Positions 2,783 to 23,191 of a DNA stretch of 24,000 nucleotides are shown here, piece after piece. The position numbers and the translations under genes are program-made. The notes below the pieces were generated by a model that saw nothing but the letters and a program-made list of their open reading frames with translations, did not search any database and was not told the origin of the DNA. Each line of letters begins with the position of its first letter. Positions within the stretch are counted from its first letter, which is position 1. Origin of the DNA: Mariprofundaceae bacterium (GTDB lineage Bacteria; Pseudomonadota; Zetaproteobacteria; Mariprofundales; Mariprofundaceae); contig JAIPJD010000004.1 in assembly GCA_021734365.1 (NCBI GenBank), positions 1 through 24,000 on the forward strand, read 5' to 3'.

Positions 2783-2814
2783 AATCCCCCTCAATCCCCC
2801 TTTTGCAAAGGGGG
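2783..2814. repeat. right inverted repeat flanking the DUF559 gene (AATCCCCC-TCAAT-CCCCCTTTTGCAAAGGGGG)
   Basis: Partner of 2402-2433. It abuts the DUF559 ATG and provides a GAGGGGG SD-like stretch on the minus strand. Confidence 0.8.
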
Positions 2815-2874
2815 AAGGCTGAACATCGTTACAGCAGTCGATCGAGCACAGCACCCTGGCCATCAAGGGAGAGG

Positions 2875-5084: not shown

Positions 5085-5869
5085 GGTGTCCGGCTCAACT
5101 GCTGTTGTAACTGCACAATGCCATCGACGATGCGCGGTCCGGGGCGGCTGACAAGATCGGGGTTGATGGCGATAACACGGGCATCAGGAAGCCACTGCCT
5201 CCAGAAGATTTTGCGTGATTCGATTTTACCACTGCGGCTCGGAATAATAATCACTTCGGGATTGGCCCGAACCACGGATTCCACGTTCACACGCATGGTT
5301 TCAGCATGATTCTCCGCGAACACATTATCGCCGCCTGCTGCGCTCAACACCTGTGTGATAAAGCTGCCTCCGGCTTCGGTCATCAGCGGATCACTCCACA
5401 CTTCGAAAAAAACCCGAAGCCGTTTTGTTGTCCGGCTTTGCACAGCAGCGAGCCTTTCGCGCATCTGAGCGACCAGTCTGCCTGCCTGTTGTCCATGCCC
5501 GGTCTGTTTTCCGAGCCGGATAAGATCATCAAAAATATCCTGCAGATTCTCCGGATGGGTCACCATCACGCGAACCCCATGCTGCTCAAGTTTTTGCAGG
5601 CCTTGCAGGGCCGGATTGGATGCGATGACCAGCGTTGGTTTGAGTCTCAGCGAGGCTTCACTGAACAGCCGTGAGTAGTTGGCAATGACAGGCCTGTTTT
5701 TTACCGCTTCGGGAAAGTCACAGTATGCGGATACACCGACTACCTCAGCACCGGCACCCATGGCAAAAAGCAGTTCACAGGCGTGCGGTGACAGGGCAAG
5801 GATACGCTCCTCAGCCCATGCATCGGATGCAGAGAGAGATGCCAGTAACAGGAGAAGAACTATTCTCAC
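5081..5869 (-). CDS. btuF: periplasmic cobalamin-binding protein (BtuF-like, class III SBP)
   Basis: Signal peptide MRIVLLLLLASLSASDAWA, then RILALSPHACELLFAMGAGAEVVGVSAYCDFP, which resembles BtuF. GTG start overlaps the tonB stop (GTGA). Confidence 0.75.
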   Translation of the reverse strand: MRIVLLLLLASLSASDAWAEERILALSPHACELLFAMGAGAEVVGVSAYCDFPEAVKNRPVIANYSRLFSEASLRLKPTLVIASNPALQGLQKLEQHGVRVMVTHPENLQDIFDDLIRLGKQTGHGQQAGRLVAQMRERLAAVQSRTTKRLRVFFEVWSDPLMTEAGGSFITQVLSAAGGDNVFAENHAETMRVNVESVVRANPEVIIIPSRSGKIESRKIFWRQWLPDARVIAINPDLVSRPGPRIVDGIVQLQQQLSRTP

Positions 5870-6483
5870 AGTCGTTTAAACTTCAGACGAAAGCGGTATG
5901 TTCCATCATCAACCGGGAAAGGCTGTGCTCTGGAAACAGTCTGTATGGCTGCACGGTCCAGCATGCTATAGCCGGATCCATGTAATACTGAAATCTGATC
6001 AGCAGCCCCGTTCTGTGTCAGAACAAATGCCACATCGACATGGCCTTCAATACCACGGCGGCGAGCGCTGGCAGGATAGAACTTGAATGATTCCAGGTGG
6101 CTTCTGACCAGGCTGTTTGTTGCGTTGCCTGTTTCGCTGCTGCTTTCAGTTTTTTCCATGGCAGCCTGTCCGGATGCGGTGGTGGTGGTGATCGCAGGCT
6201 CCGGTTCAGAAGGTTCGGTAGCCTGATTTGCAGGAAGAGACATTGCGGCCATTTCTGTATGGGTGACATCACTCTCTTCCAGAGCGATTTGCTCAGTCTG
6301 TTTTACAGGGGGGTTGCTGGCCCTGATGCTGGCAGGCCGGGGAGGTGTGGCGACTTTTTCGGACAGCACTTCTATCGTAACCAGCTCCAGTATGGTTCCC
6401 TTTTGCAACATCTCATTTGTGCCATTGCCAGCCAGATTAAACCAGAGGGTACCCAACAGGCCGTGGATGGCAGCACTTGCCAC
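5866..6483 (-). CDS. tonB: energy transducer TonB
   Basis: SAAIHGLLG (SxxxH TM motif), a Pro/Glu/Thr-rich spacer, and a C-terminal TonB domain (YPASARRRGIEGHVDVAFVL...G..LD.AA...V). The start is given at the only canonical codon (GTG 6483). The conserved FWPW segment lies upstream of it (see findings). Confidence 0.75.
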   Translation of the reverse strand: MASAAIHGLLGTLWFNLAGNGTNEMLQKGTILELVTIEVLSEKVATPPRPASIRASNPPVKQTEQIALEESDVTHTEMAAMSLPANQATEPSEPEPAITTTTASGQAAMEKTESSSETGNATNSLVRSHLESFKFYPASARRRGIEGHVDVAFVLTQNGAADQISVLHGSGYSMLDRAAIQTVSRAQPFPVDDGTYRFRLKFKRL

Positions 6484-6508
6484 CAGCCACGGCCAGAAGG
6501 GTTTGATC

Positions 6509-8461
6509 CTAGAAGCTATAACTTACTCCGCCACGCGCACTGATTGATGCGCCCGGATACAGGCCGATGGCGCCTGCAGGGGAAGCGGCACCGGTGCTGA
6601 TATATTTCCTGTTGGTCAGGTTATCCACGCGCACGAAGAACTCCGCACCCTGCCAGCGATAGGACGCCACTGCATCGAGCAGCAAGTAAGATTGTACCTG
6701 GGCACGTGAATTAAGCTGATCGTTAATCAGGTGATGGGAGCCGACATAGGTTGAGTACAGCGTGGTGGAGAAGCCCTCCGTCCAGTCCGATGTCACATTC
6801 AGACCGACCCGGTTTTGTGGTACGCCGGGGATACGGTTGCCACTGAATGCGCCACCGCTGAAGGTGGCACGAACCAGTGAATAGTTGGCACTGATCCGGG
6901 CAAGGTCATGGGCATGCCAGAAGCCTGCAAGCGTGAGCAGACGATGCAGTGTCGGATCAACATAGTTGCTGTTGGTGCCGAAGAAGCCGATGGTAGGATC
7001 AAGGTAGATCTCATTTTTAAGCTTGGCATGCTGATAGGAGATTTCCAGCCATGCCCTGTCAGTTTCATAACGCAGGCCTGCATTATAGTGCTGGCCTGTT
7101 TGCGGCAACAGGTCGGTGCGAAAGCTTGCTGTAAAGGCTGGTGGCAGCCACTCGGTACGTTCATCCAGTCTCGGAAACCGCACCGAGCGATTGTGATTCA
7201 GGCGCAGGCGAAAATCGCCGAAACCGATGGAAGCCCCGACATCATAAGCGCTCAATCGATTTGATACGGCACTGGTTCCACTGTTCAGAGCATCGTTTAC
7301 TTCCTCGGAGCGAAACCCACCTGTAACCGCATAGTTGTCGTCTGATAGCGTGATCTGACCGTAATAACCGCTACGGTCACGCCTGGCATCCAGACCGGCA
7401 ACAGTGCCTTTAACCCTGTCAATATCAGCGCCGACAATCAGTTGCGTGTTAAATTCACCGTGCTCATGAGCAAGCTTCACTTTCGGGCGCGTGGAGATCG
7501 TGCGTAACACACTGGTGGAGTCAAACGGGAATGCACCACCGAAATGGGCAGAGGAGTCACGACGACGGAATGAGGCAGGCAGATCAAGCTCCACAGGCCC
7601 GGCATTGACCAGCAGGCCTGAGTTGATGAAATCATCCGTGGTGCTGCCGAATTCATCCGGCTTCAGCGTCTGCTTCGGGTTGGCATCCACCTGAGCCTGT
7701 GTCAGAGCACCGGGCAGACCGAAACGGTCGGTGTGGTGATTGCCGCTGCCATACCACATGATGGCGTCAGTGATATCAGCCTCAAAGCGTGCGCCTGCAT
7801 CATAACGTTCGAAACGACTGTTATCGCGATAACCGTCCGTCTTCTGGCCGGAGAAATTGCCTTCCAGACGTACCTTGCCGGTGTCGGCACCCATGCGAAC
7901 TTTACCATTCTGGCTGCCAAAGCTGCCACCGCCCAGCATGATTTCACCACCGGATTCCGGGATGCGGGTGATAATGTTGATCACGCCACCGACCGCACCG
8001 TCACCGTAAAGAACCGAGCCGCCACCATGCACGATTTCAATGCGCTCAATCTGATCCAGTGGAATCTGGGTCCAGTCTGCTTCTGAAAGATCGGGACTGC
8101 TGATACGACGTCCGTCAATCAGCACGACTTTGTTTGATGCCGCCGAATCGCCGAAGCCACCCAGGTCGATCACCGCTTTGGCACCGATGCCGGATGTATC
8201 ACGCACGGTGATGCCAGCCTGGCCCTTGAACAGGTCGGCAACATTCTCGGCATGTGATGCCTCGATTTCACCCCGACTGATGATGGTGACCGGTTTCGAT
8301 GATTGAATGGAAGGGGACTCAACTCTGCTACTGGTGACATTGAGTTCACCAAGATCCTGAGTTTGAGCCTCTGTTGTTGCTGGAATGACGGTCAGAAAAC
8401 CTGCCAGCCATAGTGTGTGTTTAAGTGTATGTTTCAAAGTTTCTCCGCGCCCGCCGCGCAT
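6509..8461 (-). CDS. btuB: TonB-dependent outer-membrane receptor, cobalamin type
   Basis: Signal peptide, a plug domain (ITVRDTSG...VLIDGRRI), a beta-barrel, and a C-terminal aromatic residue (GGVSYSF*). It lies directly downstream of a cobalamin riboswitch. An alternative start TTG at 8437 has a better SD (GGAGaaactTTG) than ATG 8461. Confidence 0.85.
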   Translation of the reverse strand: MRGGRGETLKHTLKHTLWLAGFLTVIPATTEAQTQDLGELNVTSSRVESPSIQSSKPVTIISRGEIEASHAENVADLFKGQAGITVRDTSGIGAKAVIDLGGFGDSAASNKVVLIDGRRISSPDLSEADWTQIPLDQIERIEIVHGGGSVLYGDGAVGGVINIITRIPESGGEIMLGGGSFGSQNGKVRMGADTGKVRLEGNFSGQKTDGYRDNSRFERYDAGARFEADITDAIMWYGSGNHHTDRFGLPGALTQAQVDANPKQTLKPDEFGSTTDDFINSGLLVNAGPVELDLPASFRRRDSSAHFGGAFPFDSTSVLRTISTRPKVKLAHEHGEFNTQLIVGADIDRVKGTVAGLDARRDRSGYYGQITLSDDNYAVTGGFRSEEVNDALNSGTSAVSNRLSAYDVGASIGFGDFRLRLNHNRSVRFPRLDERTEWLPPAFTASFRTDLLPQTGQHYNAGLRYETDRAWLEISYQHAKLKNEIYLDPTIGFFGTNSNYVDPTLHRLLTLAGFWHAHDLARISANYSLVRATFSGGAFSGNRIPGVPQNRVGLNVTSDWTEGFSTTLYSTYVGSHHLINDQLNSRAQVQSYLLLDAVASYRWQGAEFFVRVDNLTNRKYISTGAASPAGAIGLYPGASISARGGVSYSF

Positions 8462-8580
8462 TTTAATTTACGGGTTGAGCATCAATGGAGAAAAACCTGG
8501 TTGTCGGAAGTCATCGGTAGAATCGACCAGCCCACGACCAGCCTCCCGCCGAGACCCAATCCGATTTGAAACCCGCAGGT

Positions 8581-8757
8581 TTCTCACATTGGGCCGGTCT
8601 CCTGGCTTGCCATCATCCTCAGCTGTTTATGCCTTCCCGGTAGTGACACCAGTGGCGTTTCAAACAGCTTTGTCAGGCCTACAGTAGCGGGGGCTGCGCC
8701 GGAATGGGGTTAAATCAACCTTCACCGGACTTCCCGTTTCACTTCGTAATGAGAATC
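8581..8757 (-). promoter_or_regulatory. cobalamin (adenosylcobalamin) riboswitch in the btuB leader
   Basis: The minus-strand RNA contains GGGAAGUCCGGUGAA, GCAGCCCCCGCUACUGUAGG and GCCACUGG...CCGGGAAGGC. It also has the B12 box AGCCAGGAGACCGGCC (reverse complement of 8591-8606). Putative P1 is UUCUCA (8750-8755) pairing with UGAGAA (8581-8586). Boundaries are approximate. Confidence 0.88.
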
Positions 8758-8763
8758 ATTACA
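8745..8763. promoter_or_regulatory. candidate Fur box overlapping a -10-like hexamer of the btuB operon promoter
   Basis: cgTAATGAgAATCATTAca matches the 19-bp Fur consensus GATAATGATAATCATTATC at 14/19 positions and contains a 7-3-7 palindrome GTAATGA/TCATTAC. Minus-strand TGTAAT (8758-8763) is a 5/6 match to TATAAT. No convincing -35 found. Confidence 0.45.
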
Positions 8764-8821
8764 AAAGCACCCAAAGCGGCGGTAATCCTACAGCGGTCAT
8801 ATTTAGAAATCTATCAGAAGA

Positions 8822-10891
8822 TCAGGTGCTGCCCGAAAGGGCCGGCATATCCGTACGGATAACGGGTATGGCCAAGGATAAGTCCCGTGGGTGCTGGTTC
8901 AGGGGCTCCTTAAGGAAAGACTTATCTCTGGCTGAAGGCCTGTCAGCATCTGCCTGAATGCCCAGTTTTGGAACCCAGTTCATCTCCAGCCAGCGGGTCA
9001 GATCAAGCGGCATCTGGGTCAACACGGCCGCACGCACAGAATTGTCGACCTGCGTAGTAATCAGCTTATAGCCAACACCATTTTTCTTCAGTATTTCCAG
9101 ATTCTGCCCGGCGACAGGGAGGCCTCCTTCCAGAGCCGCTTTAAACAACTCCATGCTCCGCTTGCTCTCCCTCGCCACACCACGCCCTTCAGCATACATG
9201 TAGGCCAGGGCATTTTGTGCGGGGGCATAATTCTGTTCTACAGCTTTTCGGTACCAGAACACAGCTTTACTGTCACTCTGCTCTATACCATCACCGCGGC
9301 GATAAACATTACCAATGTTAAACTGAGCTGTGGTATTCCCCTGTCTTGCAGCGGCAAGAAACAGCTCGGCAGCTTTAGCAAGATTATACTCTACGCCCTG
9401 CCCCTCGAGATACATGCTCCCCAGTGTGTTCTGAGCTGCTGCGTCTCCATGCTCCGCCAGCTTCTGAAACAGTTGGGCTGCATGAATCATATTCCTTTCC
9501 ATGCCACGTCCATTGTAATAGAGAACGGCCAGATTATAGGCCGCATCCATATCACCCCGCTCCAGTGCCTTACGATACCAGCTTGCAGCTTCATGCTCGC
9601 TGCGTCCGACACCACGCCCTCCACTATAGAATAACCCCAGAATCATCTGGGCTCGTGCATTACCCCCTGCTTCGGCTTTAAGCAACCACTGGGCGGCGCC
9701 TTCATCATCCCGGTCCATCCCGATACCGCGTGTGTAGAGGATCCCCAGGTTCAACTGTGCTTTTGCATACCCGCTTTCAGCAGCTTTTCCAAGCCAGTAT
9801 AGCGCACTTTTCATATCCGACTCACGGTAACCGAAACCAAGTGTGTATATCACGACCAGACTGTTCTGGGCTTCAGCAAACCCGGCCTCTGCTGCGCTCT
9901 TCAGCCATTTTATCGATTTTTCCAGATCTTTTGGGATGCCTTTGCCCGCTGCATAAAGAATTCCAAGATTCGTCTGTGCCCTTAGCACCCCCTGATTGGC
10001 TGCGATCAGCATCCATTTTTCGGCCTCAGCAACGTTTGTCCCAACACCCTGGCCCAATGCGTACATCGCCCCCACCAGAGAGGCTCCCTCCGCACTGTTT
10101 TGACGTGCCGCCCTTAAAAGCCACTGGAAGGCCTCTCGATCATCCGGTGCGGTACCAATCCCGAGAATCAACACCTTTCCAAGCCGCAACTGGGCCTCAA
10201 CATAATCAGCCTCTGCTGCATTTCTCAGCCACTGCAGGGACTTGACACTGTCAAATGCCACACCGCGGGATTCATGGTACATCATGGCCAGTAAAAATTG
10301 TGAGCCGGCGTCGCCTGCACGTGCCTTGTTTGTAATCCGGCTAACCAGTTCCTGACGATAGGCTTCTGCTTCGGGAACCTTTGCCGCCTCGGCTTTTAAA
10401 ACCCAGTTAAGTGCTTCACTGTCACTCTGCTCAATCCCCCGCCCGTCAGCGTAGATCCCTGCCACCTTGTACATAGCAGGAGCAATCCCTTTCTTTGCTG
10501 CGAGCAGATACCATCCGACCATTTTCTGATCATCTTTAACAGTACCTCTTTCATGTTCGATATGCCCGGCCAGCTGGTACTGGGCCTCTGCATACCCCTG
10601 CTTTGCCGCCATGGTGAGCCACCTTACAGCCTGCGCATCATCACGATCGGTGCCTTTACCCTGTTGATACATCAGCCCAAGTCGATATTGAGCCTCCGCA
10701 TAACCGCTTCGCGCCGAATTCTCAAACCAGTGGAGTGCGTCTTCATACTGGCCGCTTTCAAACGCTGCCTTGCCCTGGTCAACTGTATCCGACTGGACTG
10801 TTTCATAATCTTTATCAGAAACGACAAAATAGACGGCTACAGCGCCTACCAGCACAAACAGAGCAATAAAAATAATCTTAATTAACTGCAT
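8822..10891 (-). CDS. membrane-anchored Sel1-repeat (SLR/TPR-like) protein
   Basis: N-terminal TM helix IKIIFIALFVLVGAVAVYFVV, then about 15 tandem ~36-aa Sel1 units (pattern xAEAQxxLGxMYxxGxGVxxDxxxAxxWxxKAAxxG). A non-repetitive C-terminal region of ~100 aa follows. Confidence 0.85.
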   Translation of the reverse strand: MQLIKIIFIALFVLVGAVAVYFVVSDKDYETVQSDTVDQGKAAFESGQYEDALHWFENSARSGYAEAQYRLGLMYQQGKGTDRDDAQAVRWLTMAAKQGYAEAQYQLAGHIEHERGTVKDDQKMVGWYLLAAKKGIAPAMYKVAGIYADGRGIEQSDSEALNWVLKAEAAKVPEAEAYRQELVSRITNKARAGDAGSQFLLAMMYHESRGVAFDSVKSLQWLRNAAEADYVEAQLRLGKVLILGIGTAPDDREAFQWLLRAARQNSAEGASLVGAMYALGQGVGTNVAEAEKWMLIAANQGVLRAQTNLGILYAAGKGIPKDLEKSIKWLKSAAEAGFAEAQNSLVVIYTLGFGYRESDMKSALYWLGKAAESGYAKAQLNLGILYTRGIGMDRDDEGAAQWLLKAEAGGNARAQMILGLFYSGGRGVGRSEHEAASWYRKALERGDMDAAYNLAVLYYNGRGMERNMIHAAQLFQKLAEHGDAAAQNTLGSMYLEGQGVEYNLAKAAELFLAAARQGNTTAQFNIGNVYRRGDGIEQSDSKAVFWYRKAVEQNYAPAQNALAYMYAEGRGVARESKRSMELFKAALEGGLPVAGQNLEILKKNGVGYKLITTQVDNSVRAAVLTQMPLDLTRWLEMNWVPKLGIQADADRPSARDKSFLKEPLNQHPRDLSLAIPVIRTDMPALSGST

Positions 10892-10952: not shown

Positions 10953-12416
10953 TCAAAAGAGGCCCAGCTCATCCCACATTTCATCCACGCGGCTCTTTAC
11001 CTTTTCACTCATGGCAATGGGGATTCCCCACTCCCGCCCGGTCTCACCCGGGAGCTTGTTTGTAGCATCTATTCCCACTTTGGAACCGAGCCCCGCAACC
11101 GGTGAGGCAAAATCCAGATAGTCGATGGGAGTATTGCCTACAATGGTGAAGTCACGCTCAGGATCAGTGCGGGTCGAAATGGCCCAGACCACCTCTTCCC
11201 ATGAGCGGCAATCAATATCCTCATCAACAACAATAATAAACTTGGTATACATGAACTGACGCAGATAAGACCAGATACCAAACATGACTCGCTTGGCATG
11301 CCCGGCATATCCCTTCCTGATTGAAACAACCGCCACACGATAGGAACATCCCTCCATGGGCAGGTAAAAATCAACAATCTCCGGAAACTGCTTTTTCAGA
11401 ATGGGTACAAAAACCTCATTAAAAGCCAGTCCCAGAATGGCAGGCTCATCAGGCGGTTTGCCTGTATGGGTGGAGTGATAGATGGCATCCCTGCGCATCG
11501 ACATGGTTTCCACGGTAAAGACAGGAAACCGCTCTACTTCATTGTAATATCCGGTGTGGTCACCAAACGGCCCCTCATCGGCATACTCATCAAAAGAGAT
11601 ATGTCCCTCCAGCACAATCTCTGCACTGGCGGGAACCTGCAGGGGAACGGACATGCAGTTGGTTAACACCGTCTTTTTACCCCGCAACAGGCCGGCAAAC
11701 TGATACTCAGACAATGTGTCAGGAATTGGCGTGACTGCTGCCAGAATCGTTGCCGGATCCGCCCCGATTACAACAGCGCATGGAAATTTTTCCGCCCCTG
11801 CACTGCCGGCCTCCCGGTGATCCTGTGCGCCGCCACGGTGTTTAAGCCAGCGCATGATCAGTCTGTTTTTACCAAGCAACTGCTGCCGGTAGATGCCGAG
11901 ATTCTGCCGCTCTTTATGCGGCCCTTTTGTAACAACCAGCCCCCAGGTAAGCAGTGGCGCAACATCCCCGGGCCAGCAGGTCTGAATCGGAAGGCGGGTC
12001 AGGTCAACATCGTCTCCCTGCAGGACAACCTCTTTCCAGGGGGCATGTTTCACGACCTTCGGCGCCATATGCAGCACCTGTTTTAATATTGGGAATTTAC
12101 CAACAGCATCTTTAATACCCCTGGGAGGCTCCGGCTCTTTCAGGTATGCCAGCAATTCGCCAATTTCACGCAACTCATCGGCGGAATCTCTTCCCATGCC
12201 CAGTGCGATCCGTTCTGCTGTTCCAAAAAGATTTGTTAACATCGGCATGGTATGGCCTTTAATATTCTCAAACAGCAGTGCCGGACCACCCCGTCGCAGC
12301 ACCCTGTCTGAAATTTCCGTAACCTCCAGCTCGGAACAAACAGGCGCTGAAATACGTTTCAGATCACCCCGCTGCTCCAGCTCATCGATAAAGGCTCGAA
12401 GATCCGGATAACCCAT
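10953..12416 (-). CDS. ubiD: UbiD-family decarboxylase (4-hydroxy-3-polyprenylbenzoate decarboxylase)
   Basis: 487 aa. The N-terminus [31 protein letters not shown] and the full-length pattern are typical of UbiD. The ATG lies 3 nt after the STAS stop. Confidence 0.9.
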
Positions 12417-12419
12417 GGA

Positions 12420-12746
12420 CTACTCACCGGCCTCGGCAATTTCAAATTCATGCTCCAGATTTGAAAGCACAACAAGATCTCTGACCGCTCCCGTCAATCC
12501 GGAAATAACAAACTGTTTGTCTGGCGACCGGCTCCATTGAAGACCTTCAACAAGCGTGGCGATCCCGGAGGAGTCCATGCGCGCAACATCATTCAGTACA
12601 ATCCGGACAGAGCGTACCAGCCGGTCTGCAAAGCAGCCGCTCATCACCTTCCTCAAGGCAGGCGATGTATGGAAATTGATGTCACCTTTCACATGAATGC
12701 TCAGACTCTCTGAACTTTCCCGATCCACACTCACTTCAAACTTCAT
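12420..12746 (-). CDS. STAS-domain protein (anti-sigma-antagonist / MlaB-like)
   Basis: 108 aa. L(S)IHVKGDINFHTSPALRKVM, then RMDSSGIATLVEG (the DSSG motif of STAS domains). Strong SD (AGGAGaccggATG). Confidence 0.75.
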   Translation of the reverse strand: MKFEVSVDRESSESLSIHVKGDINFHTSPALRKVMSGCFADRLVRSVRIVLNDVARMDSSGIATLVEGLQWSRSPDKQFVISGLTGAVRDLVVLSNLEHEFEIAEAGE

Positions 12747-12783
12747 CCGGTCTCCTGCATCCCATTTTAATCACGCTTATCAC

Positions 12784-13677
12784 TTACTGGTCAGCCACCA
12801 TATGTTCACCCACCTGATCGAGTTCTTCCTGCAGTCGCTGCAACTCAATATGATCGCCATTATGCTCAGCAAGGTGCATCAGTTGATGGAGTGTGTCACT
12901 CTGCCCCTGAAGATCCTCAAGAGCCCGGTAAATTGCCAGAGCATCCTGCAAATTATCCCGTTTTTGAGCTTCATCCTGTATCAGCTTCGCACTCAGAAGG
13001 AGTGCATGCGCGGCCAGTCTGGGAGCTCCGACATCACGGCTCATATTCGATACCAGCGCAGTCTCCTGTTTTGCAGTTTCATGATCCAGCTGTTGCTCTG
13101 CAAGCAGCGCCAGCCCCATGTGCGCCTCGATCTTATACAGCATTGCAGCTCTATCTACTTCACTGTTTCTGAGAACCAGATCATACTCCTGTCGGGCAAC
13201 ATCATACCTCAGCTGCAGCTGGCTAAGGCGTGCTGCAATAAGATGTATATCGGCCGGATAGCCGGAACCCAAAACATCCGGCTGCCATGCCTCTCTGCCC
13301 TGTCGCTGATGCAGAAGTGCCAGCGCAACTTTGGCCCGCATATTTAAAATTTCAAGCCGATGCCGCTGCGCCACACCGGAGGCACGCTTCAATGCCGCCT
13401 CTCCCTTTTGAACATCGCCTGCAGAGACATGCAGCGTGCCAAGATTATACCAGGCAGTGGCAATCAGGTCCGGATCATTGGCCAGCTGGGCGGCCTGGAG
13501 TGCCCGCTCAAGCAGCCTCTCCGCCACCAGCCAGCGTTCACGCTGCATCGCTGCCACGCCATTACTGCTGAGCTCTTTCATTCTCTCTGTATAAGGGTTC
13601 TCAACGGGATTTTTCTGTCCGGAACTTCCGCAGGCCGCCAGCATCAGCATGGCCGCTAAAACAACAAGCTGTTTCAA
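12784..13677 (-). CDS. TPR-like helical-repeat lipoprotein
   Basis: TTG start. Signal peptide with lipobox (MKQLVVLAAMLMLAAC|GSS). The rest is all-helical with TPR-like units (AWYNLGTLHVSAGDVQKGEAALKRA...). TTGA overlap with the mlaD-like stop. Confidence 0.65.
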   Translation of the reverse strand: MKQLVVLAAMLMLAACGSSGQKNPVENPYTERMKELSSNGVAAMQRERWLVAERLLERALQAAQLANDPDLIATAWYNLGTLHVSAGDVQKGEAALKRASGVAQRHRLEILNMRAKVALALLHQRQGREAWQPDVLGSGYPADIHLIAARLSQLQLRYDVARQEYDLVLRNSEVDRAAMLYKIEAHMGLALLAEQQLDHETAKQETALVSNMSRDVGAPRLAAHALLLSAKLIQDEAQKRDNLQDALAIYRALEDLQGQSDTLHQLMHLAEHNGDHIELQRLQEELDQVGEHMVADQ

Positions 13678-14684
13678 GGCCGCAGATCCAGTGCAGGTGC
13701 CGCAACCGCACCGCCACCTTTCGACCCCTGCCCTTTATCTCCGCCAATAAGCCAGGAACCCTGAAGGTTTTTGACAAGCCTGTTAATCTCTTCAATCGTT
13801 GTACGTGATTCACGCGCCAGGCCCGGAAGCTCCGGGGTTAATTCCGACAGGTCAGAAGCAACAATATCCAGCGATTTGGAAAGCATATCCAGATTACGCA
13901 GCATCGCATTCACATGCTCAACGGTAGCGCCCCCCTCTTTGCCCATAGCTTCGGAAAAAGGCCGGATATCATGAAGTATCGCTGTCATCTCCTTCAGTGA
14001 AGAAGAGAGCCCGTGTGCCACCTGCTGCTGGTTCAGCTCTTCGGCAAACTTCTGCAAATGAACCAGCGTGCCTGTCAGCTGCTCAATCATTACCTCCAGT
14101 CTGTCTCCACGAACACCCTGGGTGACCTCCCGGACTCCGGAGAGAGCCAGGCGAACATCGCCTTTGGGGTCATTCATCCATTTTGCCAGTGAAGCCAGTT
14201 CACTTAGCAGCACATTGGCGTTGCCAACTGCAGGCTTGAGATCTGCAAGCAACTGATCCAGTGAGGCCTCGGTCTCATACCCCAGCAAAGCACCATCATT
14301 AATCGCGGGTTTGTTTTCATCCCCTGCTGTAACTTCAACCACCTGTTCGCCAATCAGCCCCTCTTTGGTCACTCTGACAATAGCATCCTGATGCAGCATG
14401 TTCCGGTAACGGTCAATCAGCTCCATTGTGATTCTTACTTTTCCCTCTTCCTGCAACTCAATTTGATCGACACGTCCGATGGCAAACCCCTGGAACTTCA
14501 CGGGCTGTCCTTCATAAAAGGAGGCCGCTGAAGGTGGAGAGAAAAAGATGTAAAACTTTTTGGCAAACACATTACTGCGCATACTGGCAACCAGCAGCAC
14601 CAGCACCAGGGCGCCGACACCCAGAATGACAAACCAGCCCACCTGCCGCCGCATGCTCGAAACAACATCATCGCGCTCTACCAT
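13674..14684 (-). CDS. MCE/MlaD-family protein with extended helical C-terminal region
   Basis: N-terminal TM (WFVILGVGALVLVLLVA). MCE domain (FYEGQPVKFQGFAIGRVDQIELQEEGKVRITMELIDRY...VRVTKEGLIGEQVVEV). Then ~200 aa of heptad-like helical sequence and a Gly-rich tail. The start could alternatively be ATG 14654. Confidence 0.8.
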   Translation of the reverse strand: MVERDDVVSSMRRQVGWFVILGVGALVLVLLVASMRSNVFAKKFYIFFSPPSAASFYEGQPVKFQGFAIGRVDQIELQEEGKVRITMELIDRYRNMLHQDAIVRVTKEGLIGEQVVEVTAGDENKPAINDGALLGYETEASLDQLLADLKPAVGNANVLLSELASLAKWMNDPKGDVRLALSGVREVTQGVRGDRLEVMIEQLTGTLVHLQKFAEELNQQQVAHGLSSSLKEMTAILHDIRPFSEAMGKEGGATVEHVNAMLRNLDMLSKSLDIVASDLSELTPELPGLARESRTTIEEINRLVKNLQGSWLIGGDKGQGSKGGGAVAAPALDLRP

Positions 14685-15346
14685 ACACCACTCACATCCG
14701 GGACAGCGTCATCAACAATTCTATGCGTACGGGCAAACTTCAGGCCTGAGCCCTCGTGCTCTGATGCGCTGAGGTAGAGCACTCCGGATCCGAGCTCTTC
14801 CAGCGCCACCCTGGCCTTTTCACGGAAAAGCTGCAGTCGATCCGGTGCCATGCCGACATGCACTTCCTGTGCCACAATAACATCGGGCTCCTGCAACAGG
14901 CAGTGGCCCAGACTTAACAGTGCATGTGTAAAGCTGGAACGCTCTCCGGCCTGCTCCTCCAGCCGCTCCAGCCCGACAAGTTCAGCCACTTCATCAACAC
15001 GATTTCTGGCATTCTGCAGCCGTCCTTCATCCCCGCAATAGAGGAAAGGCAACAGCAGATTCTCCCTGATGCTCAGGTTTGCCATCAAACCCCGATGCCG
15101 AATCATACTTCCAACCCGCAGGCAGAATTCAGGCGAGCCCGCGGGAAGGCGCTGATTCCCATGCTGTAGCCAGATAGATGATGCCAGCGACCCCTGCCCC
15201 CCCATATCGGGAAACATCAGGCTTAAAAATGCATACTGAAAGCGGTTGTTCATAACAATACGCACGCTCTCTCCCCGCATCACCCGGTCAGCCGGCAGCA
15301 GATCACCAAAGAGGTTGAGATCTTCCCACTGCAGAATGTCACTCAT
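14678..15346 (-). CDS. ABC nucleotide-binding-domain homologue with degenerate catalytic motifs (MlaF-like pseudo-ATPase)
   Basis: 222 aa from ATG 15346 (ATGA overlap with the mlaE-like stop; the track ORF to 15505 is an over-extension). Collinear with MlaF-type NBDs: GESVRIVMNNRFQYAFLSLMF sits where G..xxIxGxSGxGKSTLL is expected, LSIRENLLLPF matches, ERSSFTHALLSLGHCLLQEPDVIVAQEV replaces LSGGQ...hhhhDE. Confidence 0.65.
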   Translation of the reverse strand: MSDILQWEDLNLFGDLLPADRVMRGESVRIVMNNRFQYAFLSLMFPDMGGQGSLASSIWLQHGNQRLPAGSPEFCLRVGSMIRHRGLMANLSIRENLLLPFLYCGDEGRLQNARNRVDEVAELVGLERLEEQAGERSSFTHALLSLGHCLLQEPDVIVAQEVHVGMAPDRLQLFREKARVALEELGSGVLYLSASEHEGSGLKFARTHRIVDDAVPDVSGVW

Positions 15347-16164
15347 AACACGATCCTTGAAACCACCCATAATGCGTCCAGCAAAACCATCACGATTAAT
15401 GCCCCCACAACACCATTTGTTGCCCGGATCGGAATCTGATTTGGATCCCGTCCGACCCGGCAAGCCTGATCCAGCAAAACCATACATGAGAACATGGGGA
15501 AGCACATGCCCTTTAACATCATGGCAAGCATCATCTCAATATCCATGCCCCTGCGAACCTCTACGAGGAACTCGGAAAAGTTCAGGGTATAGCTCCAGGA
15601 GACAACCAGCCCCCCCACCCAGATGGAGACAACCACAAACAGAAAGGTAAGAATCAACCCACTTAAGGCAAAGGCAAGAACCCTTGGAAGATGCAGGTAT
15701 TCATGCGGGTGTACACCCATGCTGCGAAGGAATGCATCTTCTCCCCGAACATGCATATTACCAATCTCCGTTACAACCGCCACGCCGGAACGGGCCAGCA
15801 GGAAAATACCCACGGTAAATGGCGCCACCTCCTGAACCAGAACACCGTTCATGAGCGTTCCAATCAGGGAAAGGTCCTGAATCTGCTGGGCAAACACAAC
15901 GATGCTGTAGACCGCCAGCACCCCCGCCCCCAAAGCAAACAGGAGTACCCAGGGCAGGCTCTGTACGCCCGTAAAATAAAGTTGTCTGATTAATACGTGT
16001 GTTACAGCGGGTCTGGAGAGCCACTTCATTCGCAGGCAGATGGAGAAGACTGAAAAGAAGAGATTGTAAAAACGAACGATGCTATTGAAAAGGTTGATGG
16101 CCTGATCGCCCAGCCTCTCAGCTCGCCAGTTCCATCCCCCGATATATGCCTGCAAAATTCGCAT
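15343..16164 (-). CDS. MlaE-family ABC transporter permease
   Basis: 273 aa. QEVAPFTVGIFLLARSGVAVVTEIGNMHVRGEDAFLRSMGVHPHEYLHLPRVLA matches the conserved MlaE/DUF140 core (ELGP..TA...AGR.GSA..AEIG.M.V.EQ.DAL..MG..P..YLV.PR). Confidence 0.85.
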   Translation of the reverse strand: MRILQAYIGGWNWRAERLGDQAINLFNSIVRFYNLFFSVFSICLRMKWLSRPAVTHVLIRQLYFTGVQSLPWVLLFALGAGVLAVYSIVVFAQQIQDLSLIGTLMNGVLVQEVAPFTVGIFLLARSGVAVVTEIGNMHVRGEDAFLRSMGVHPHEYLHLPRVLAFALSGLILTFLFVVVSIWVGGLVVSWSYTLNFSEFLVEVRRGMDIEMMLAMMLKGMCFPMFSCMVLLDQACRVGRDPNQIPIRATNGVVGALIVMVLLDALWVVSRIVL

Positions 16165-16338
16165 ACCGACTTTATAGGCTGCATATCAGGAAATACAAGT
16201 GCGATGGATCACAATCGTCTAAAGTGCTCAAATTAGAAACGGTTTCTGTTTCTTCTCCAGACTTGCGTGCACAACCACGCTTAAGTAGCGTCCCGCCCCC
16301 TTTCATTTACGTTAAAATTCAGGACTTTCGGGGGCAAA

Positions 16339-18336: not shown

Positions 18337-21300
18337 CTAAGCAGTCGATGGTGTCTCTTCTGATTCAAAGCTGAATGCCTTCTTCTCAAACAGTGTAAGA
18401 CAGGCAGCCACTACGTCGGCGTCATATAACCCGCCACTATTTGTTTCAATCTCCTCCAGAGCAGGTTTAATGCCAAGACTTGCCCGGTACGGCCGATGTG
18501 AACTCATCGCTTCGACCACATCAGCAACAGCCACAATCCTTGCCTCAAGGCATATCTGATCCCCTTTCAACCCTTGCGGATAGCCGGAGCCGTCGAGCCG
18601 TTCATGATGCTGATGGGCAATATCGGCCACCGGCCATGGGAAGTGGATATCCTTCAGAATATCAAAACCCGCCTGCGGGTGGCTCCTGATCAGGCTGTAT
18701 TCAATATCCGTCAGCCGTGACGGCTTGCTCAGTATCTCAGCCGGCAGATGAATCTTGCCGATATCATGGATGATGGCACCCATCCGGATGCCTTCGATCC
18801 GGCTCTCTTCCAGGCTCATTGCACGGGCAATGGCAGTCGCAAGTTCAACCACGCGCCGCTGGTGGCCGGCCGTATAGGGATCGCGTGCCTCCACAGCCCT
18901 GGCAACGGCGGCAATTGTCTCCTGCAGATTCCGGTGTATCTGCACCAGCTGCTGCTCATTGACTGCCATAATCTCGTCACGATGCAGGCGCAGACGCAGT
19001 GAGCGCACGCCAAAGGCAAGGTCGTCTGCTGTCTCCTGCAGCAGCTTTATTTCCCTGTCCGTAAATGCATTCACACGTTCTGCATAGACGTGCAGCAGGC
19101 CGAAAGCTTTATTATCCGCATCCATCAGGGGCAGCGCAATATCGGCTGCACAATCGGATTTGAGCAGTGCGCCACCCCACTGCTGATAATTTGAATCGAC
19201 TGCAATATCCTGCGTCACCTGGGTTTCTCCGCTCCGGATTGCACGGCCGCTGGGCCCCATGCCGGCTTTATTTTTTGCCCAGCCCGGTTGCATTTTATTC
19301 AGTAATTTTTTCTCAATGCCTGCACTGGCCATGATCTTTATCGACCGGTTTTTGTCATCCTGCGCATAACCCACCCAGGCCATCCGATACCCGTGCTGCT
19401 CAACAATTGCCCGGCAGATGGCCTGCAGCAGATCCGTCTCACTCTCCGCATGTACCAGTTCATGGTTTACCGTACTCAGTGCTATCAGCGCCCGGTTGAC
19501 ATGCTCCAGATTCTGTTCCGCCTGCTTGCGATCGGTGACATCACGGATAGTTCCTACTGCATGCCACTCGCCATGCAGATTGACTGAGGAAAGTGACAGC
19601 TCTATCGGGAATTCCGTTCCATCCTTTTTTAAACCTGTTAGTTCTACAGTTTGACCAATGACAGGCCCTTTGCCTGTCCTGATAAATGTTTTGAATCCGG
19701 AATAAAATGCCTCGTGGAATCGGGCCGGAGCAATCAGGGGGTGCAACTCCTTACCGACAGCCTCGGAGGCCGGGTAGCCGAAGAGCCTCTCGGCTGAACT
19801 GTTCCAGAAGGTGATCCTGCCTTCATGATCCATCATTAGCAGAGCGTCAAAGGCCGACGTTGCCATGGCGTGAACCGTTTCATTACTTTCTGAAAGTTTG
19901 AGCTCTGCTTCTCTGTGCTCAGTCACATCCTCCATGACGTGAATCGATAATGGTTCTTCGCCCTCCACGCACATGGTGTAGCCCTTGTTCAGGAATATCC
20001 GGCCATCTTCCAGCATGATTTCTTCTGCTGCTGCTTTTTCCAGCATCTTTGCACAGCCGGGCAGCGGCCCATCGCCTTTGGGGAACACCTCCCAGTAGAG
20101 CTTGCCGACCACCTCCCCGATCTCCATGCCGGCCTGTTCAGCATAGGCGCGGTTGGCGCGCAGGATGCGTAACTCGCTGTCATGCAGGAAGATCGGATCG
20201 GTGACCGCATCGAAGGTGCTCTCCCAATCCTTTTTGGCTGCTTCAATGGCATGCCGGGACAGGTTCAGATCCTCCAGCATGTAGAGCATGGACTGGCGGG
20301 ACTTTTCCGCCTCTTCGAGGCGTTGTTGAAGCTGCCGCTCTGCATGTACGCGATCAGTAATATCATTGGCCGCAGCGTAAAGATTATTCTCTAAGGCCGG
20401 GGATGCTCGCCACTCCAGCCATCTGTATCCACCATCTTTATGCCGGTAGCGGTTGACAAATGCCGTTGTGCTCTGGCCGGAAAGCTGTTTTTCCACTTCC
20501 TTGTAGGTCATCTCCAGATCATCGGGGTGGATGAGATCAGTAAACGGTTTGCTCAGCAGTTCTTCTTTACTGTACCCAAGAACCGTTTCCCACTCATGAT
20601 TAATCTCCTTGAAATAACCATCGGTTCCGGCAATACAGATCAGGCTGGGGACAACCGAGAAGAACTGTTCCAGCTCATGTTTTGCTTGCTCAATTTCCTT
20701 CTCCACCTGTTTTCGGCTGGAAATATCATGCTCCACTACGAAAGCACATTGCTCCCCGTGGTATTCTATCGCCCGGGCTGCAATCTCGGTAAAGAACGTT
20801 GAACCATCCTTGCATCTGTGCTCAGCCTCGAAATGAACAAGCTCTCCCTTTTTGATCAGCTCCAGTCTTTCGCCGATCTTCTCTGCCGATGATGTGGTGT
20901 CGAGCAGGGTGATCGGCTGATCGATCATCTCCTCCCGCCTGTAACCATGTTTCTCAAAAGCAGCATCATTTGCATCCACAATGACCGGGGGGCCGGACTC
21001 CTCTATTTTCAGAACCATCGCATAGTCTGCCACGCTCTGAAAAAGTGTCCGGTAGCGCTCCTCATTCCGGGCCACCTCTTCTTCGGCCCGCCTGCTTTCG
21101 GTGATATCCCGGGCTGTGGAAAGCGCACCCGTTACGGCTCCGTCAACACCCCTGAGCGCCTTGCAGTTCCAGGCCAGCAGACGCCTTTGCCCATCACTGC
21201 GATGCTGCCAGCTTTCCAGATAAATTGGGTTTTCATCGCCATCAAAGAGGGGTTGAACTGCTGTATATGTCTCCTGTTCTCCCTCAAAATAGAAACCGGC

Positions 21301-21831
21301 CTCCCTGCCGATTACATCTTCACCGAAAAACTCGATCCCCGCCCTGTTTGCCCATCTGTATATCCTGCTGCTATCCACCTCCATAACAATCTCGGGGATG
21401 GCAGCCAATAGTGCTTCGTAGCGTGCGGAAAGGGCCCTCAACCCCTCTTCCAACCGCCTGCGCTCAGAAATATCGCGGAAGATGCCTTGAATGAATTTCC
21501 TGCCATCAATCTCAATCGTGCCGGCAGTTACCTCCACAGGCACGTGATGCCCATCCCTGTGCAGGACAACAACACTCCCTTCGATGGCAGTTCCTTTTTG
21601 GATATTTTGCCGGAAGATATTCTGATAATACCCGGCCTCTTCTTTTGGATGCAGATCGGACTGATGCATGCCAATGATCTCTTTTCGTGGGCGGCCAATG
21701 AGCCCGGATGCCTGTTCGTTTCCTTCAACGATCAGGCCGGTCTCTGCATCGGCCAGAAATATGGCGTCCGGCGATGCCTCGATAATACTGACGTATATTT
21801 TCAGCCAGGCTGCATTGAGCTCATTGCTCAC
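18337..21831 (-). CDS. multi-sensor signalling protein: ~6 PAS domains, GAF, C-terminal HD-GYP (c-di-GMP phosphodiesterase type)
   Basis: 1164 aa with GTG start. Repeated PAS cores each end in DI(T/S)ERK-like motifs (RDISERRR, RDITESRR, HDISSRKQ, NDITDRVH, EDVTEHRE, RDVTDRKQ). A GAF-like block follows. The HD-GYP motifs are HDIGK and HHERLDGSGYPQG. Confidence 0.9.
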   Translation of the reverse strand: MSNELNAAWLKIYVSIIEASPDAIFLADAETGLIVEGNEQASGLIGRPRKEIIGMHQSDLHPKEEAGYYQNIFRQNIQKGTAIEGSVVVLHRDGHHVPVEVTAGTIEIDGRKFIQGIFRDISERRRLEEGLRALSARYEALLAAIPEIVMEVDSSRIYRWANRAGIEFFGEDVIGREAGFYFEGEQETYTAVQPLFDGDENPIYLESWQHRSDGQRRLLAWNCKALRGVDGAVTGALSTARDITESRRAEEEVARNEERYRTLFQSVADYAMVLKIEESGPPVIVDANDAAFEKHGYRREEMIDQPITLLDTTSSAEKIGERLELIKKGELVHFEAEHRCKDGSTFFTEIAARAIEYHGEQCAFVVEHDISSRKQVEKEIEQAKHELEQFFSVVPSLICIAGTDGYFKEINHEWETVLGYSKEELLSKPFTDLIHPDDLEMTYKEVEKQLSGQSTTAFVNRYRHKDGGYRWLEWRASPALENNLYAAANDITDRVHAERQLQQRLEEAEKSRQSMLYMLEDLNLSRHAIEAAKKDWESTFDAVTDPIFLHDSELRILRANRAYAEQAGMEIGEVVGKLYWEVFPKGDGPLPGCAKMLEKAAAEEIMLEDGRIFLNKGYTMCVEGEEPLSIHVMEDVTEHREAELKLSESNETVHAMATSAFDALLMMDHEGRITFWNSSAERLFGYPASEAVGKELHPLIAPARFHEAFYSGFKTFIRTGKGPVIGQTVELTGLKKDGTEFPIELSLSSVNLHGEWHAVGTIRDVTDRKQAEQNLEHVNRALIALSTVNHELVHAESETDLLQAICRAIVEQHGYRMAWVGYAQDDKNRSIKIMASAGIEKKLLNKMQPGWAKNKAGMGPSGRAIRSGETQVTQDIAVDSNYQQWGGALLKSDCAADIALPLMDADNKAFGLLHVYAERVNAFTDREIKLLQETADDLAFGVRSLRLRLHRDEIMAVNEQQLVQIHRNLQETIAAVARAVEARDPYTAGHQRRVVELATAIARAMSLEESRIEGIRMGAIIHDIGKIHLPAEILSKPSRLTDIEYSLIRSHPQAGFDILKDIHFPWPVADIAHQHHERLDGSGYPQGLKGDQICLEARIVAVADVVEAMSSHRPYRASLGIKPALEEIETNSGGLYDADVVAACLTLFEKKAFSFESEETPSTA

Positions 21832-22742
21832 GGCTGTTTCTCCCGATGCTCTTTTTTCAGCTCTGCAAGTTCATCGCGCAGCTCCTTGATACGGAACTCC
21901 CGGTCAACGGTTGCCCGCTGGAACCGCTCCAGCTCATCAACACGGGCAGCCAGATCTTCAGCCCTCTGCCTGCGCTCAGCTTCCAGGACAATATTGTTCA
22001 GCGCCACAGAAATATCATTGGCCACTTCACCCAGAATAGTCTGCTCCTCATCGGCAATCTGGCCATCCTCTCCGGCATAGACCTCAAATACGCCGACCGT
22101 CCTGCCCTCAACAATAAGCGGAAGCACAGCAGCATGCTCACACCCCAGCTTCAGGAAAGGGGATAGCCATGGTGCTTTACAAGCCTCTCTATCCCTGAGT
22201 TCACAAAGCTCGATAACCCCTTTCTCCAGCACGCTCTGACAGGCAAGACAGAGGTGCAATGCGCCCGGTTCCTGCAGCCTGGTGACCTCTTCGACAAGGG
22301 CTTCATCTGCAGCAGCCCATGCAGCCATTTCCAGTTTGTTGCCCCGTTGCATACCGATCCAGGCGAAGCGGAATTTACCAATCTCCACGGCACTCACGCA
22401 TGCTGCATCCAGCAGTGCCTTCTCATCAGGCTGCCTCTGCACATTCTGGTTGCAGTCGGAGAGAAATCGCAGCAGCCGGCTCGTTCTCTCCTGCTGGTAT
22501 AAATCCTTAAGAACACGTTGCCTGTTGGTCTCGGCAAAGAAGCCGAAGCCAATCAGCAGGGCTGCGATAACAAGGCGCATCGACAACTCATCAGGCTCCG
22601 ATTGGGCCAGCAGCGTTACGGATAGGGGCGCTATTTTCCAATAAAAGGTGTGTAGCAGCGCTTCCATCAACCAGTAGATGATTGCCAGGACAAGCCCCAG
22701 CCATCTCAGGTTAATTTTAAGGTGATTCGCATAGAGTGACAC
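21828..22742 (-). CDS. membrane-anchored GAF-domain protein with C-terminal coiled coil
   Basis: 304 aa. GTG start preceded by AGGAG (9-nt spacer) and an in-frame TAA. Two hydrophobic helices (LGLVLAIIYWLMEALL, LVIAALLIGFGFFA). Cys-rich GAF-like core (FAWIGM...LPLIVEGRTVGVFEVYA). Charged heptad tail (ERRQRAEDLAARVDELERFQRATVDREFRIKELRDELAELKKE). The stop overlaps the next GTG (GTGA). Confidence 0.65.
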   Translation of the reverse strand: MSLYANHLKINLRWLGLVLAIIYWLMEALLHTFYWKIAPLSVTLLAQSEPDELSMRLVIAALLIGFGFFAETNRQRVLKDLYQQERTSRLLRFLSDCNQNVQRQPDEKALLDAACVSAVEIGKFRFAWIGMQRGNKLEMAAWAAADEALVEEVTRLQEPGALHLCLACQSVLEKGVIELCELRDREACKAPWLSPFLKLGCEHAAVLPLIVEGRTVGVFEVYAGEDGQIADEEQTILGEVANDISVALNNIVLEAERRQRAEDLAARVDELERFQRATVDREFRIKELRDELAELKKEHREKQP

Positions 22743-23115: not shown

Positions 23116-23191
23116 TGGTGGAGCCAAGCGGGATCGAACCGCTGACCTCCACACTGCCAGTGTGGCGCTCTCCCAGCTGAGCTATGGCCCC
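23116..23191 (-). tRNA. tRNA-Ala (anticodon GGC)
   Basis: The minus-strand 76-nt sequence is GGGGCCATAGCTCAGCTGGGAGAGCGCCACACTGGCAGTGTGGAGGTCAGCGGTTCGATCCCGCTTGGCTCCACCA. It folds as a cloverleaf with anticodon loop CT-GGC-AG, the G3:U70 Ala identity pair, a GGTTCGATCC T-arm and an encoded CCA. Confidence 0.95.

Follow-up and report, generated by a model that had tools for sequence, protein, structure and literature searches.

We analysed a 24,000-nt stretch of DNA, hereafter the window, from a metagenome-assembled genome of an iron-oxidising Mariprofundaceae bacterium in the class Zetaproteobacteria (GCA_021734365.1, contig JAIPJD010000004.1, positions 1-24,000). It carries a minus-strand operon, in the order mlaE2, F*, a long mce gene, a TPR lipoprotein gene, a STAS gene and ubiD, for an envelope system of the MlaE/MCE type in which F* has the fold of an ATP-binding cassette (ABC) nucleotide-binding domain (NBD) and is catalytically dead as an ABC ATPase. 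An initial annotation had described the first five of these open reading frames (ORFs) and the junctions between them, and direct reading of the sequence reproduced both.

The first gene encodes an MlaE-type ABC permease of 273 aa (15343-16164) and overlaps the gene for F* (222 aa, 14678-15346) through ATGA at 15343-15346. The F* gene in turn shares 7 nt (ATGGTAG, 14678-14684) with the gene for a single-MCE-domain protein of 336 aa (13674-14684), which shares TTGA at 13674-13677 with the gene for a TPR-solenoid lipoprotein of 297 aa (12784-13677); the latter starts with TTG, and its product bears the lipobox LAAC. A 37-nt spacer (12747-12783) with an AGGAG Shine-Dalgarno sequence, which is the slot of a kinase gene in most relatives, then leads to the gene for a SpoIIAA/RsbV-type STAS protein of 108 aa (12420-12746). 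The ATG of a gene for a UbiD-family decarboxylase of 487 aa (10953-12416; UbiD_N, UbiD and UbiD_C all match) lies 3 nt past the STAS stop codon, so the operon counts six genes, with ubiD as the last, and does not end at 12420 as a five-gene operon would. UbiD is a decarboxylase of the ubiquinone pathway, here coupled to an envelope operon.

Ahead of the operon, a divergent intergenic region of 174 nt (16165-16338) separates mlaE from ppiD and presumably holds the promoter. A consensus scan for promoters and terminators returned nothing exceeding chance, this region included, and an Rfam scan gave no match inside the operon. The synteny survey found the divergent ppiD neighbour kept in many relatives.

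F* keeps the NBD fold and has lost the ATP-binding motifs

F* is 100% identical to NCBI K9M17_00635. It has no Pfam match at E<=0.1 and does not reach the gathering score of PF00005 ABC_tran; profile searches gave only sub-threshold ABC matches, over residues 65-190. MlaF (NF008809 / PRK11831) was not among its NCBIfam matches at E<=0.1, the F* profile gave the canonical MlaF proteins of related genomes about 0-2 bits, and none of 105 F* homologues carries a precomputed Pfam domain. The fold itself is clear. An AlphaFold2 (AF2) model with a pLDDT of 85.5 matched NBDs in the PDB at E 6e-11 by Foldseek (TM 0.65-0.70 over 201-232 alignment columns, for a query of 222 residues), and MlaF (7d06_B) and MceG (8fed_H) were among the structures matched.

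Motif positions were assigned from three independent comparisons, namely an alignment of the family, a hidden Markov model (HMM) alignment to BceA/PsdA, and a MAFFT alignment to intact MlaF of related genomes. In place of the canonical Walker A sequence GGSGSGKT, F* reads MNNRFQYA (residues 32-39), with Tyr38 for the lysine and no glycine. The Q-loop glutamine is replaced by Arg83, the signature LSGGM by RSSFT (136-140), and the H-loop histidine by Ala194. Walker B, canonically FFDE, reads VAQE within the stretch VIVAQE, with Gln160 for the aspartate and the glutamate kept as Glu161; Gln160 is invariant in a 22-sequence core alignment. MlaF's C-terminal extension is absent, as the chain ends about 25 aa past the H-loop position, compared with about 60 aa more in MlaF. 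This degeneracy is common to all 105 homologues, down to 43% identity. The view that the F-like subunit lacks ATP-binding and hydrolysis motifs, first taken from inspection of the sequence, thus holds on proper alignment: all motifs are replaced, with Glu161 kept in most members. Misalignment as a source of hidden motifs is ruled out, because the BceA/PsdA HMM alignment, the MlaF MAFFT alignment and the fold model concur.

The F* gene has a dN/dS of 0.06-0.19, in the same range as mlaE and mce. Together with an intact reading frame in about 39 genomes, this rules out a pseudogene. Conservation is highest in the stretch MIRHRGLxANLSLRENLLLPFLY, which corresponds to the Q-loop/helical-subdomain region. 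In ABC transporters this region touches the coupling helix of the permease, and the conservation peak therefore fits docking on MlaE without ATP handling. F* is an NBD-fold pseudo-enzyme in which all ATP-binding and catalytic motifs are replaced, apart from the glutamate that most members retain, and which is under purifying selection.

A search of 1.84 billion representative proteins with the F* profile yielded 23 clusters at E<=1e-10. When each GTDB species was represented by a single genome, the family turned up in about 39 genomes, all of them Zetaproteobacteria; Mariprofundus sp. KV, M. micogutta ET2 and Ghiorsea are among them. In the synteny survey of relatives the order was mlaE2, F*, mce (331-343 aa), TPR lipoprotein, an optional HATPase_c_2 kinase, STAS and ubiD, with the four-gene core alone in three loci (L005, L018, L039). 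The suggestion that these genes, the degenerate NBD among them, co-occur across genomes was borne out by this gene-neighbourhood survey, and since the set recurs in about 39 species-level genomes, the arrangement is not due to chance.

In five loci from Mariprofundus-type genomes, a canonical mlaF-mlaE-mlaD-mlaC cluster and, after it, yhdP (about 1020 aa) lie immediately upstream of the F* operon (L002:1-5126; about 250-6120 in L022, L023, L026 and L027). Every ATPase motif is present in the MlaF of the last four, where the gene is complete; in L002, MlaF matches ABC_tran and its gene runs off the locus end. The mlaE2 permease is distinct from the canonical MlaE of these related genomes. The clusters with intact MlaF indicate that the class owns a normal Mla system in addition to the F* machine, and their position directly upstream in Mariprofundus points to envelope lipid transport as the theme of the neighbourhood. 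The canonical cluster itself lacks mlaB; in its vicinity, a STAS gene occurs only in the F* operon. Taken together, these data identify the conserved zetaproteobacterial operon as a second, non-canonical MCE envelope machine.

Degenerate NBDs also occur in MCE operons outside the class. The next-best matches of the F* profile (E 1e-8 to 1e-4) were enriched in full-length NBD-like proteins without Walker A, signature or Walker B; these made up about 35 of 126 matches, fell into several subfamilies and had GGLxSNLxVxENxxLPxxYH in common. In the divergent outgroup subfamilies, Walker A, the signature and the H-loop histidine are missing. Outgroup degenerate NBDs scored 42-64 bits with the F* profile, and none of them attained a curated NCBIfam cut-off. 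We inspected seven non-zetaproteobacterial loci (P0252's locus, L007, L008, L089, L090, L091 and L092). The degenerate NBD gene directly follows mlaE in five (P0252's locus, L007, L008, L089 and L091); upstream of it lies a gene fragment of no assigned identity in L090, and purL, not mlaE, in L092. An MCE gene comes directly after the NBD gene in all seven and encodes 334-351 aa where it is complete on the contig. L007 adds a 293-aa lipoprotein with faint TPR matches, and L092 a 278-aa TPR protein, with a RelB/ParE toxin-antitoxin pair inserted between the mce and TPR genes. No STAS gene is present in the outgroup operons seen. The literature searched contained no description of a degenerate or inactive MlaF, of pseudo-ATPase MCE systems or of such ABC pseudoenzymes, and nothing relevant on partner switching with MlaB or on Mariprofundus with MlaD.

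Envelope components and their known counterparts

The permease matches PF02405 MlaE with 136.5 bits (1.3e-39, cut-off 22.5) and stays under the models of the canonical MlaE subfamily (TIGR00056, 96.7 bits against a cut-off of 212.2; NF033619, 64.3 against 315). The MCE protein matches PF02470 with 43.4 bits (cut-off 25.1) over residues 51-121. These two scores sustain the original assignment to an MlaE/MCE-type envelope system. Against subfamily models the MCE protein scored 56.7 bits for TIGR04430 OM_asym_MlaD (cut-off 135) and 69.2 bits for TIGR00996 (cut-off 140.5), the latter match covering residues 19-294. Profile searches across the operon thus supported the MlaE, MCE and STAS assignments, were marginal for the TPR protein (TPR_12, 29.7 bits, just under the cut-off of 30.1), and were negative for ABC_tran on F*.

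The MCE protein consists of an N-terminal transmembrane helix, the MCE domain (51-121), a helical tail of about 200 aa and a conserved C-terminal peptide. Residues 197-273 align to positions 445-520 of the PqiB model, which lie in the C-terminal needle region, and the orthologues carry precomputed PF28544 Helical_needle and DUF948 domains. Within the tail, the Asp, the Leu and the Pro-Glu-Leu core of the motif SDLSELTPELPGLARES do not vary, and its other positions are conserved to at least 90%; the motif is followed by SWL.GG, a variable linker and the terminal APP(V/A)LD(M/L)(R/Q)P. Homology searches with the MCE and TPR proteins returned zetaproteobacterial orthologues only.

Orthologues of the lipoprotein clear the cut-offs of TPR models, and its lipobox Cys16 is invariant among them. 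Its AF2 model (pLDDT 93.7) is all-helical, with 14 helices, and the top Foldseek matches are peptide-binding TPR solenoids (LGN/Pins, Rap/NprR, KLC) at E 4e-7. The initial description of a TPR-like lipoprotein was right as to the TPR character, which the model confirmed as a solenoid, and mistaken in treating a lipoprotein in that position as out of the ordinary. PqiC, MlaA and BamD were not among the best Foldseek matches, and Pfam gave no PqiC match. A PqiC-, MlaA- or BamD-like protein is thereby ruled out; the BamD signal comes from the signal-peptide region only (residues 4-59), and the fold is that of a generic TPR solenoid. By analogy with the PqiB-PqiC and MpcD-MpcA pairs, the C-terminal peptide of the MCE protein may be the ligand of the TPR groove.

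Several features first regarded as atypical have precedents. The most frequent and probably ancestral form is MlaEFD with a long MlaD, and MlaA, MlaB and MlaC are sparsely distributed (Grasekamp et al. 2023, PMC10665443), so the E-F-D order, the missing MlaC and the long MCE protein do not set this operon apart; the absence of mlaC from it was itself correctly noted. A terminal lipoprotein in a system without MlaC is likewise known from the characterised Mla-Pqi chimeric system of Brucella abortus, MpcEFDA, which has the E-F-D order, a 331-aa MpcD with a helical needle and a STAS domain fused to MpcE, and which pulls down as one complex (PMC12436622). With the MlaEFD and Mpc precedents, three of the four differences from the E. 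coli system listed in the initial annotation become ordinary. In its architecture the system is more ordinary than was claimed, and in its dead NBD and regulatory module it is more interesting.

Mpc is also a close counterpart in detail, with the E-F-D-lipoprotein order, a single-MCE protein (about 331-336 aa) whose C-terminal helical region is long, no MlaC or MlaA, an associated STAS domain and a predicted trans-envelope bridge. It differs in that MpcF is homologous to MlaF, with no motif loss reported, whereas F* lacks the ATPase motifs and MlaF's C-terminal extension; in that MpcA is PqiC-like, whereas the lipoprotein in the window is an all-helical TPR solenoid; and in that STAS is fused to MpcE, whereas here it is a separate SpoIIAA-type gene, accompanied by a kinase gene in relatives. 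Veillonella parvula MlaEFD, described as an ancestral core (PMC10665443), shares the E-F-D order, an elongated envelope-spanning MlaD and the absence of MlaA, MlaB and MlaC. Its MlaD, however, ends in an outer-membrane beta-barrel domain, whereas the MCE tail in the window ends in a short peptide beside a separate TPR lipoprotein, and its MlaF is modelled like that of E. coli, with no motif loss reported.

The MlaFEDB-MlaC-MlaA system of E. coli and A. baumannii, whose MlaFEDC set is present additionally in related zetaproteobacterial genomes, has in common with the operon an MlaE permease, an MCE subunit, a cytoplasmic subunit of NBD fold and a small operon-encoded STAS protein. It differs in gene order, in a short MlaD, in the soluble MlaC shuttle and MlaA, in an active MlaF ATPase with a C-terminal "handshake" extension, and in MlaB, a truncated STAS protein that the window STAS does not match. 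Mycobacterial Mce1 (YrbE1AB-MceG-Mce1A-F) likewise has MlaE-like permeases and helical MCE C-termini that form a needle, and the Mtu_fam_mce model is the best NCBIfam match of the window MCE protein; unlike the system described here, it is a heterohexamer of six Mce proteins with an active MceG ATPase encoded elsewhere, and it has neither a TPR lipoprotein nor STAS. PqiABC and LetAB resemble the F* system as trans-envelope MCE conduits without a dedicated ATPase, with the C-terminal needle of PqiB docking on the lipoprotein PqiC, but PqiA and LetA are not ABC permeases, the MCE proteins have multiple MCE domains, and an NBD-fold subunit is lacking. In the literature searched, three features are without precedent: a fully degenerate yet conserved NBD, a TPR lipoprotein partner, and a SpoIIAA-type STAS protein accompanied by a kinase or PP2C gene in relatives.

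The STAS protein and associated signalling genes

The STAS protein matches PF01740 with 46.4 bits. It clears the anti-sigma-antagonist model TIGR00377 (55.8 bits, cut-off 53.45) and remains well under the MlaB model NF033618 (27.1 bits, cut-off 90). Its best solved relatives in a PDB sequence search are TM1442, SpoIIAA and RsbV, and no MlaB chain was present among the matches at E<=0.01. These family scores and PDB relatives rule out an identity with MlaB. Ser59, which lies in MDSSG, is aligned to MDSAG in TM1442 and to the serine that we take to be Ser58 of SpoIIAA. The phospho-acceptor-position motif MDS[SA]GIATLVEGLQWSR is conserved in 31 loci, with the serine invariant, including loci that have no kinase gene. 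The proposal that this protein retains the MlaB role therefore does not stand: the MlaB model is missed, the anti-sigma-antagonist model is passed, the phospho-acceptor serine is kept, and an RsbW-type kinase gene lies beside it in most relatives.

That kinase gene, of the RsbW/SpoIIAB-type HATPase_c_2 class (111-187 aa; PF13581, 45.7 bits), is present in about 25 loci (found among L001, L002, L004, L015 and L019-L046), where it separates the gene for the TPR lipoprotein from that for the STAS protein, and its junctions overlap the neighbouring genes in most of them. Its product keeps the N-box and the GGLG box; on sequence grounds, its kinase activity is uncertain. The gene is missing at this locus, with no more than a short spacer in its place, in the window and in its closest relatives (L009, L012, L013 and L014), which thus form one subclade without a kinase at the locus. 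In L018, which belongs to a Mariprofundaceae metagenome-assembled genome, a PP2C_2 phosphatase gene of 289 aa (L018:5678-6547) directly follows the TPR lipoprotein gene and replaces kinase, STAS and ubiD. PP2C phosphatases are the third component of partner-switching modules. A Pfam scan of ORFs of at least 120 aa found no HATPase_c_2, PP2C or sigma-factor gene elsewhere in the 24-kb window, and no sigma factor was present among the annotated genes of the related loci inspected. The STAS gene is linked to ubiD in nearly all STAS-bearing relatives whose contig extends that far, and ubiD is absent from the three STAS-less loci (L005, L018, L039).

The resemblance to SpoIIAA-SpoIIAB and RsbV-RsbW lies in the phospho-acceptor serine in DSSG and in the partner genes, HATPase_c_2 in most relatives and PP2C in one. 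The differences are that no sigma factor is nearby, that the module lies inside a transporter operon, that the G1 box of the kinase is atypical, and that the window has no kinase gene. In canonical Mla, Thr52 of MlaB lies at the MlaF interface and T52E weakens binding, with phosphoregulation left as an open question (Kolich et al. 2020, PMC7367683).

A proposed passive conduit and its alternatives

We favour the reading, to which we give about an even chance of being correct, that this MCE machine is a trans-envelope bridge or gate that works independently of ATP and is probably controlled by a phospho-switch. Assembly would follow the pattern of Brucella Mpc, Veillonella MlaEFD or Mce1. On the cytoplasmic side, a dimer of F* would cap the MlaE2 dimer and fix or gate the conformation of the permease. 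Across the periplasm, six MCE subunits would build a needle or tunnel, and the C-terminal peptide of the MCE protein would be seated in the TPR groove of the lipoprotein, presumably at the outer membrane. F* would be unable to bind or hydrolyse ATP by the canonical route, and cargo movement would therefore be passive: lipid or another hydrophobic cargo would flow down its gradient, without pumping, through a conduit that F* gates or that stays in a single conformation. The SpoIIAA-type STAS protein may bind F* in the way that MlaB binds MlaF. Where STAS and the signalling genes are present, the RsbW-type kinase of most relatives would phosphorylate Ser59 and so release STAS from F*, and a PP2C like that of L018 would dephosphorylate it, so that the machine would be switched on or off. 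We infer the protein contacts, the cargo, its passive flow and the direction of regulation; the association with partner-switch components is observed at the level of genes.

Several points weigh against this reading. The position of the catalytic glutamate is kept as Glu161 in most F* family members, which hints at residual or novel chemistry. The G1 box of the kinase (DxGxG) reads RD[YF]A when compared with what we take to be the SpoIIAB sequence. Several Pro and Gly residues in the MCE tail mean that its geometry is not that of a simple single helix, and the outer-membrane siting of the lipoprotein is presumed from a single indicator, the +2 rule. The contacts between F* and MlaE, between F* and STAS and between the MCE tail and the TPR protein are all ones that we infer. 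Finally, STAS, kinase and ubiD travel together and are missing from the core-only loci L005, L018 and L039; as they are absent where the four-gene core stays, STAS could belong to another circuit.

This last point leads to the alternative in which STAS, with the kinase, and ubiD form an unrelated module merely co-transcribed with a four-gene MCE core that has no STAS partner. We consider it rather unlikely. Kinase, STAS and ubiD are gained or lost jointly and independently of the core in the same three loci, no STAS was seen in the outgroup operons, and the STAS protein fails the MlaB model. However, the junctions from the TPR gene through the kinase gene to the STAS gene overlap in most loci. 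In L018, moreover, the same slot is taken by the PP2C gene in the absence of STAS and ubiD, which ties phospho-signalling to the core and not to ubiD. Mla-type transporters with a STAS partner also have precedents, in the MlaB-MlaF pair and in the fusion of STAS to MpcE.

Energy might instead be supplied in trans, with canonical MlaF docking on MlaE2, in place of F* or as a heterodimer with it, to give an ATP-driven pump in which F* is an assembly factor or competitive inhibitor. Related genomes do encode an intact MlaF, directly upstream in Mariprofundus. In mycobacteria, one MceG serves several Mce systems, and this sharing provides a precedent. F* is, however, translationally coupled to mlaE2 and mce through the ATGA and 7-nt overlaps, which suggests stoichiometric co-assembly, and both composite ATP sites of an F*/MlaF heterodimer would miss either Walker A or the signature. 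The Q-loop region is the most conserved part of F*, which fits permanent docking on MlaE2, and dead NBDs recur in the same operon position in other lineages. On this evidence we regard supply in trans as improbable.

A sensor, in which the MCE-TPR assembly reports the state of the outer membrane or periplasm through MlaE2 to F*, F* sequesters or releases STAS, and an RsbW-type switch has a transcriptional or enzymatic output (possibly UbiD and quinone supply), agrees with the lack of a catalytic engine, with a STAS protein of anti-sigma-antagonist and not MlaB-like type, with the anti-sigma-type HATPase_c_2 kinase genes in most operons and the PP2C gene in one, and with the tight STAS-ubiD coupling, but we think it quite doubtful, because the operon and window hold no sigma factor or other output gene, the four-gene core occurs without STAS or kinase in L005, L039 and the outgroup operons, the clade of the window has no kinase gene at the locus, and the neighbouring mlaFEDC-yhdP genes speak for a role in transport.

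MCE systems hold a central place in lipid homeostasis of the outer membrane, and debate on their direction and energetics continues. A conserved machine of MlaE and MCE type whose NBD keeps the fold and has lost the motifs is a natural experiment on what an Mla-type conduit does without ATP. To our knowledge, where an ABC transporter has a degenerate site, one working site is kept, and a fully degenerate NBD dimer that is under purifying selection and recurs across several lineages would be a novelty in the ABC field. Besides PqiC-like lipoproteins and fused beta-barrels, MCE needles would gain in the TPR lipoprotein a distal partner of a third kind, and the RsbW-type kinase of most relatives, or the PP2C of one, makes the question of STAS phosphoregulation raised by Kolich et al. 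2020 directly testable. More tentatively, and with the balance of probability against it, we propose a whole, hitherto unrecognised clade of MlaE/MCE systems permanently without ATP, in which the pseudo-enzyme NBD would be a cytoplasmic docking and gating platform for a phospho-regulated STAS switch and the whole would act either as a regulated passive lipid bridge or as a trans-envelope sensor that signals the state of the outer membrane to the cytoplasm. If true, this would be the first ABC-type transporter with both nucleotide sites dead by design, and the first genomic evidence of phosphorylation control of MlaB-like STAS subunits.

Other genes noted in the window lie on the same strand as the operon. 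Directly downstream of ubiD is a gene for a Sel1-repeat protein of 689 aa (8822-10891; 297.8 bits, eight Sel1 stretches over threshold, an N-terminal hydrophobic segment), a position taken in L002 and L003 by a 635-aa protein without a Pfam match. A cobalamin riboswitch (RF00174, 109.9 bits, 8575-8789) precedes the gene for a TonB-dependent receptor in a B12 uptake and salvage cluster (1010-8461) that encodes TonB, a periplasmic binding protein, a FecCD permease, an ABC ATPase and a CobO/BtuR adenosyltransferase, together with a DUF559 endonuclease-like protein, CbiX and a tetrapyrrole methylase. On the other side of the operon, a gene for a GAF protein of 304 aa (21828-22742) precedes and overlaps that for a multi-PAS/GAF/HD-GYP-type (HD_5) signalling protein of 1164 aa (18337-21831), and a tRNA gene lies at 23119-23191 (Rfam RF00005, 63.7 bits).

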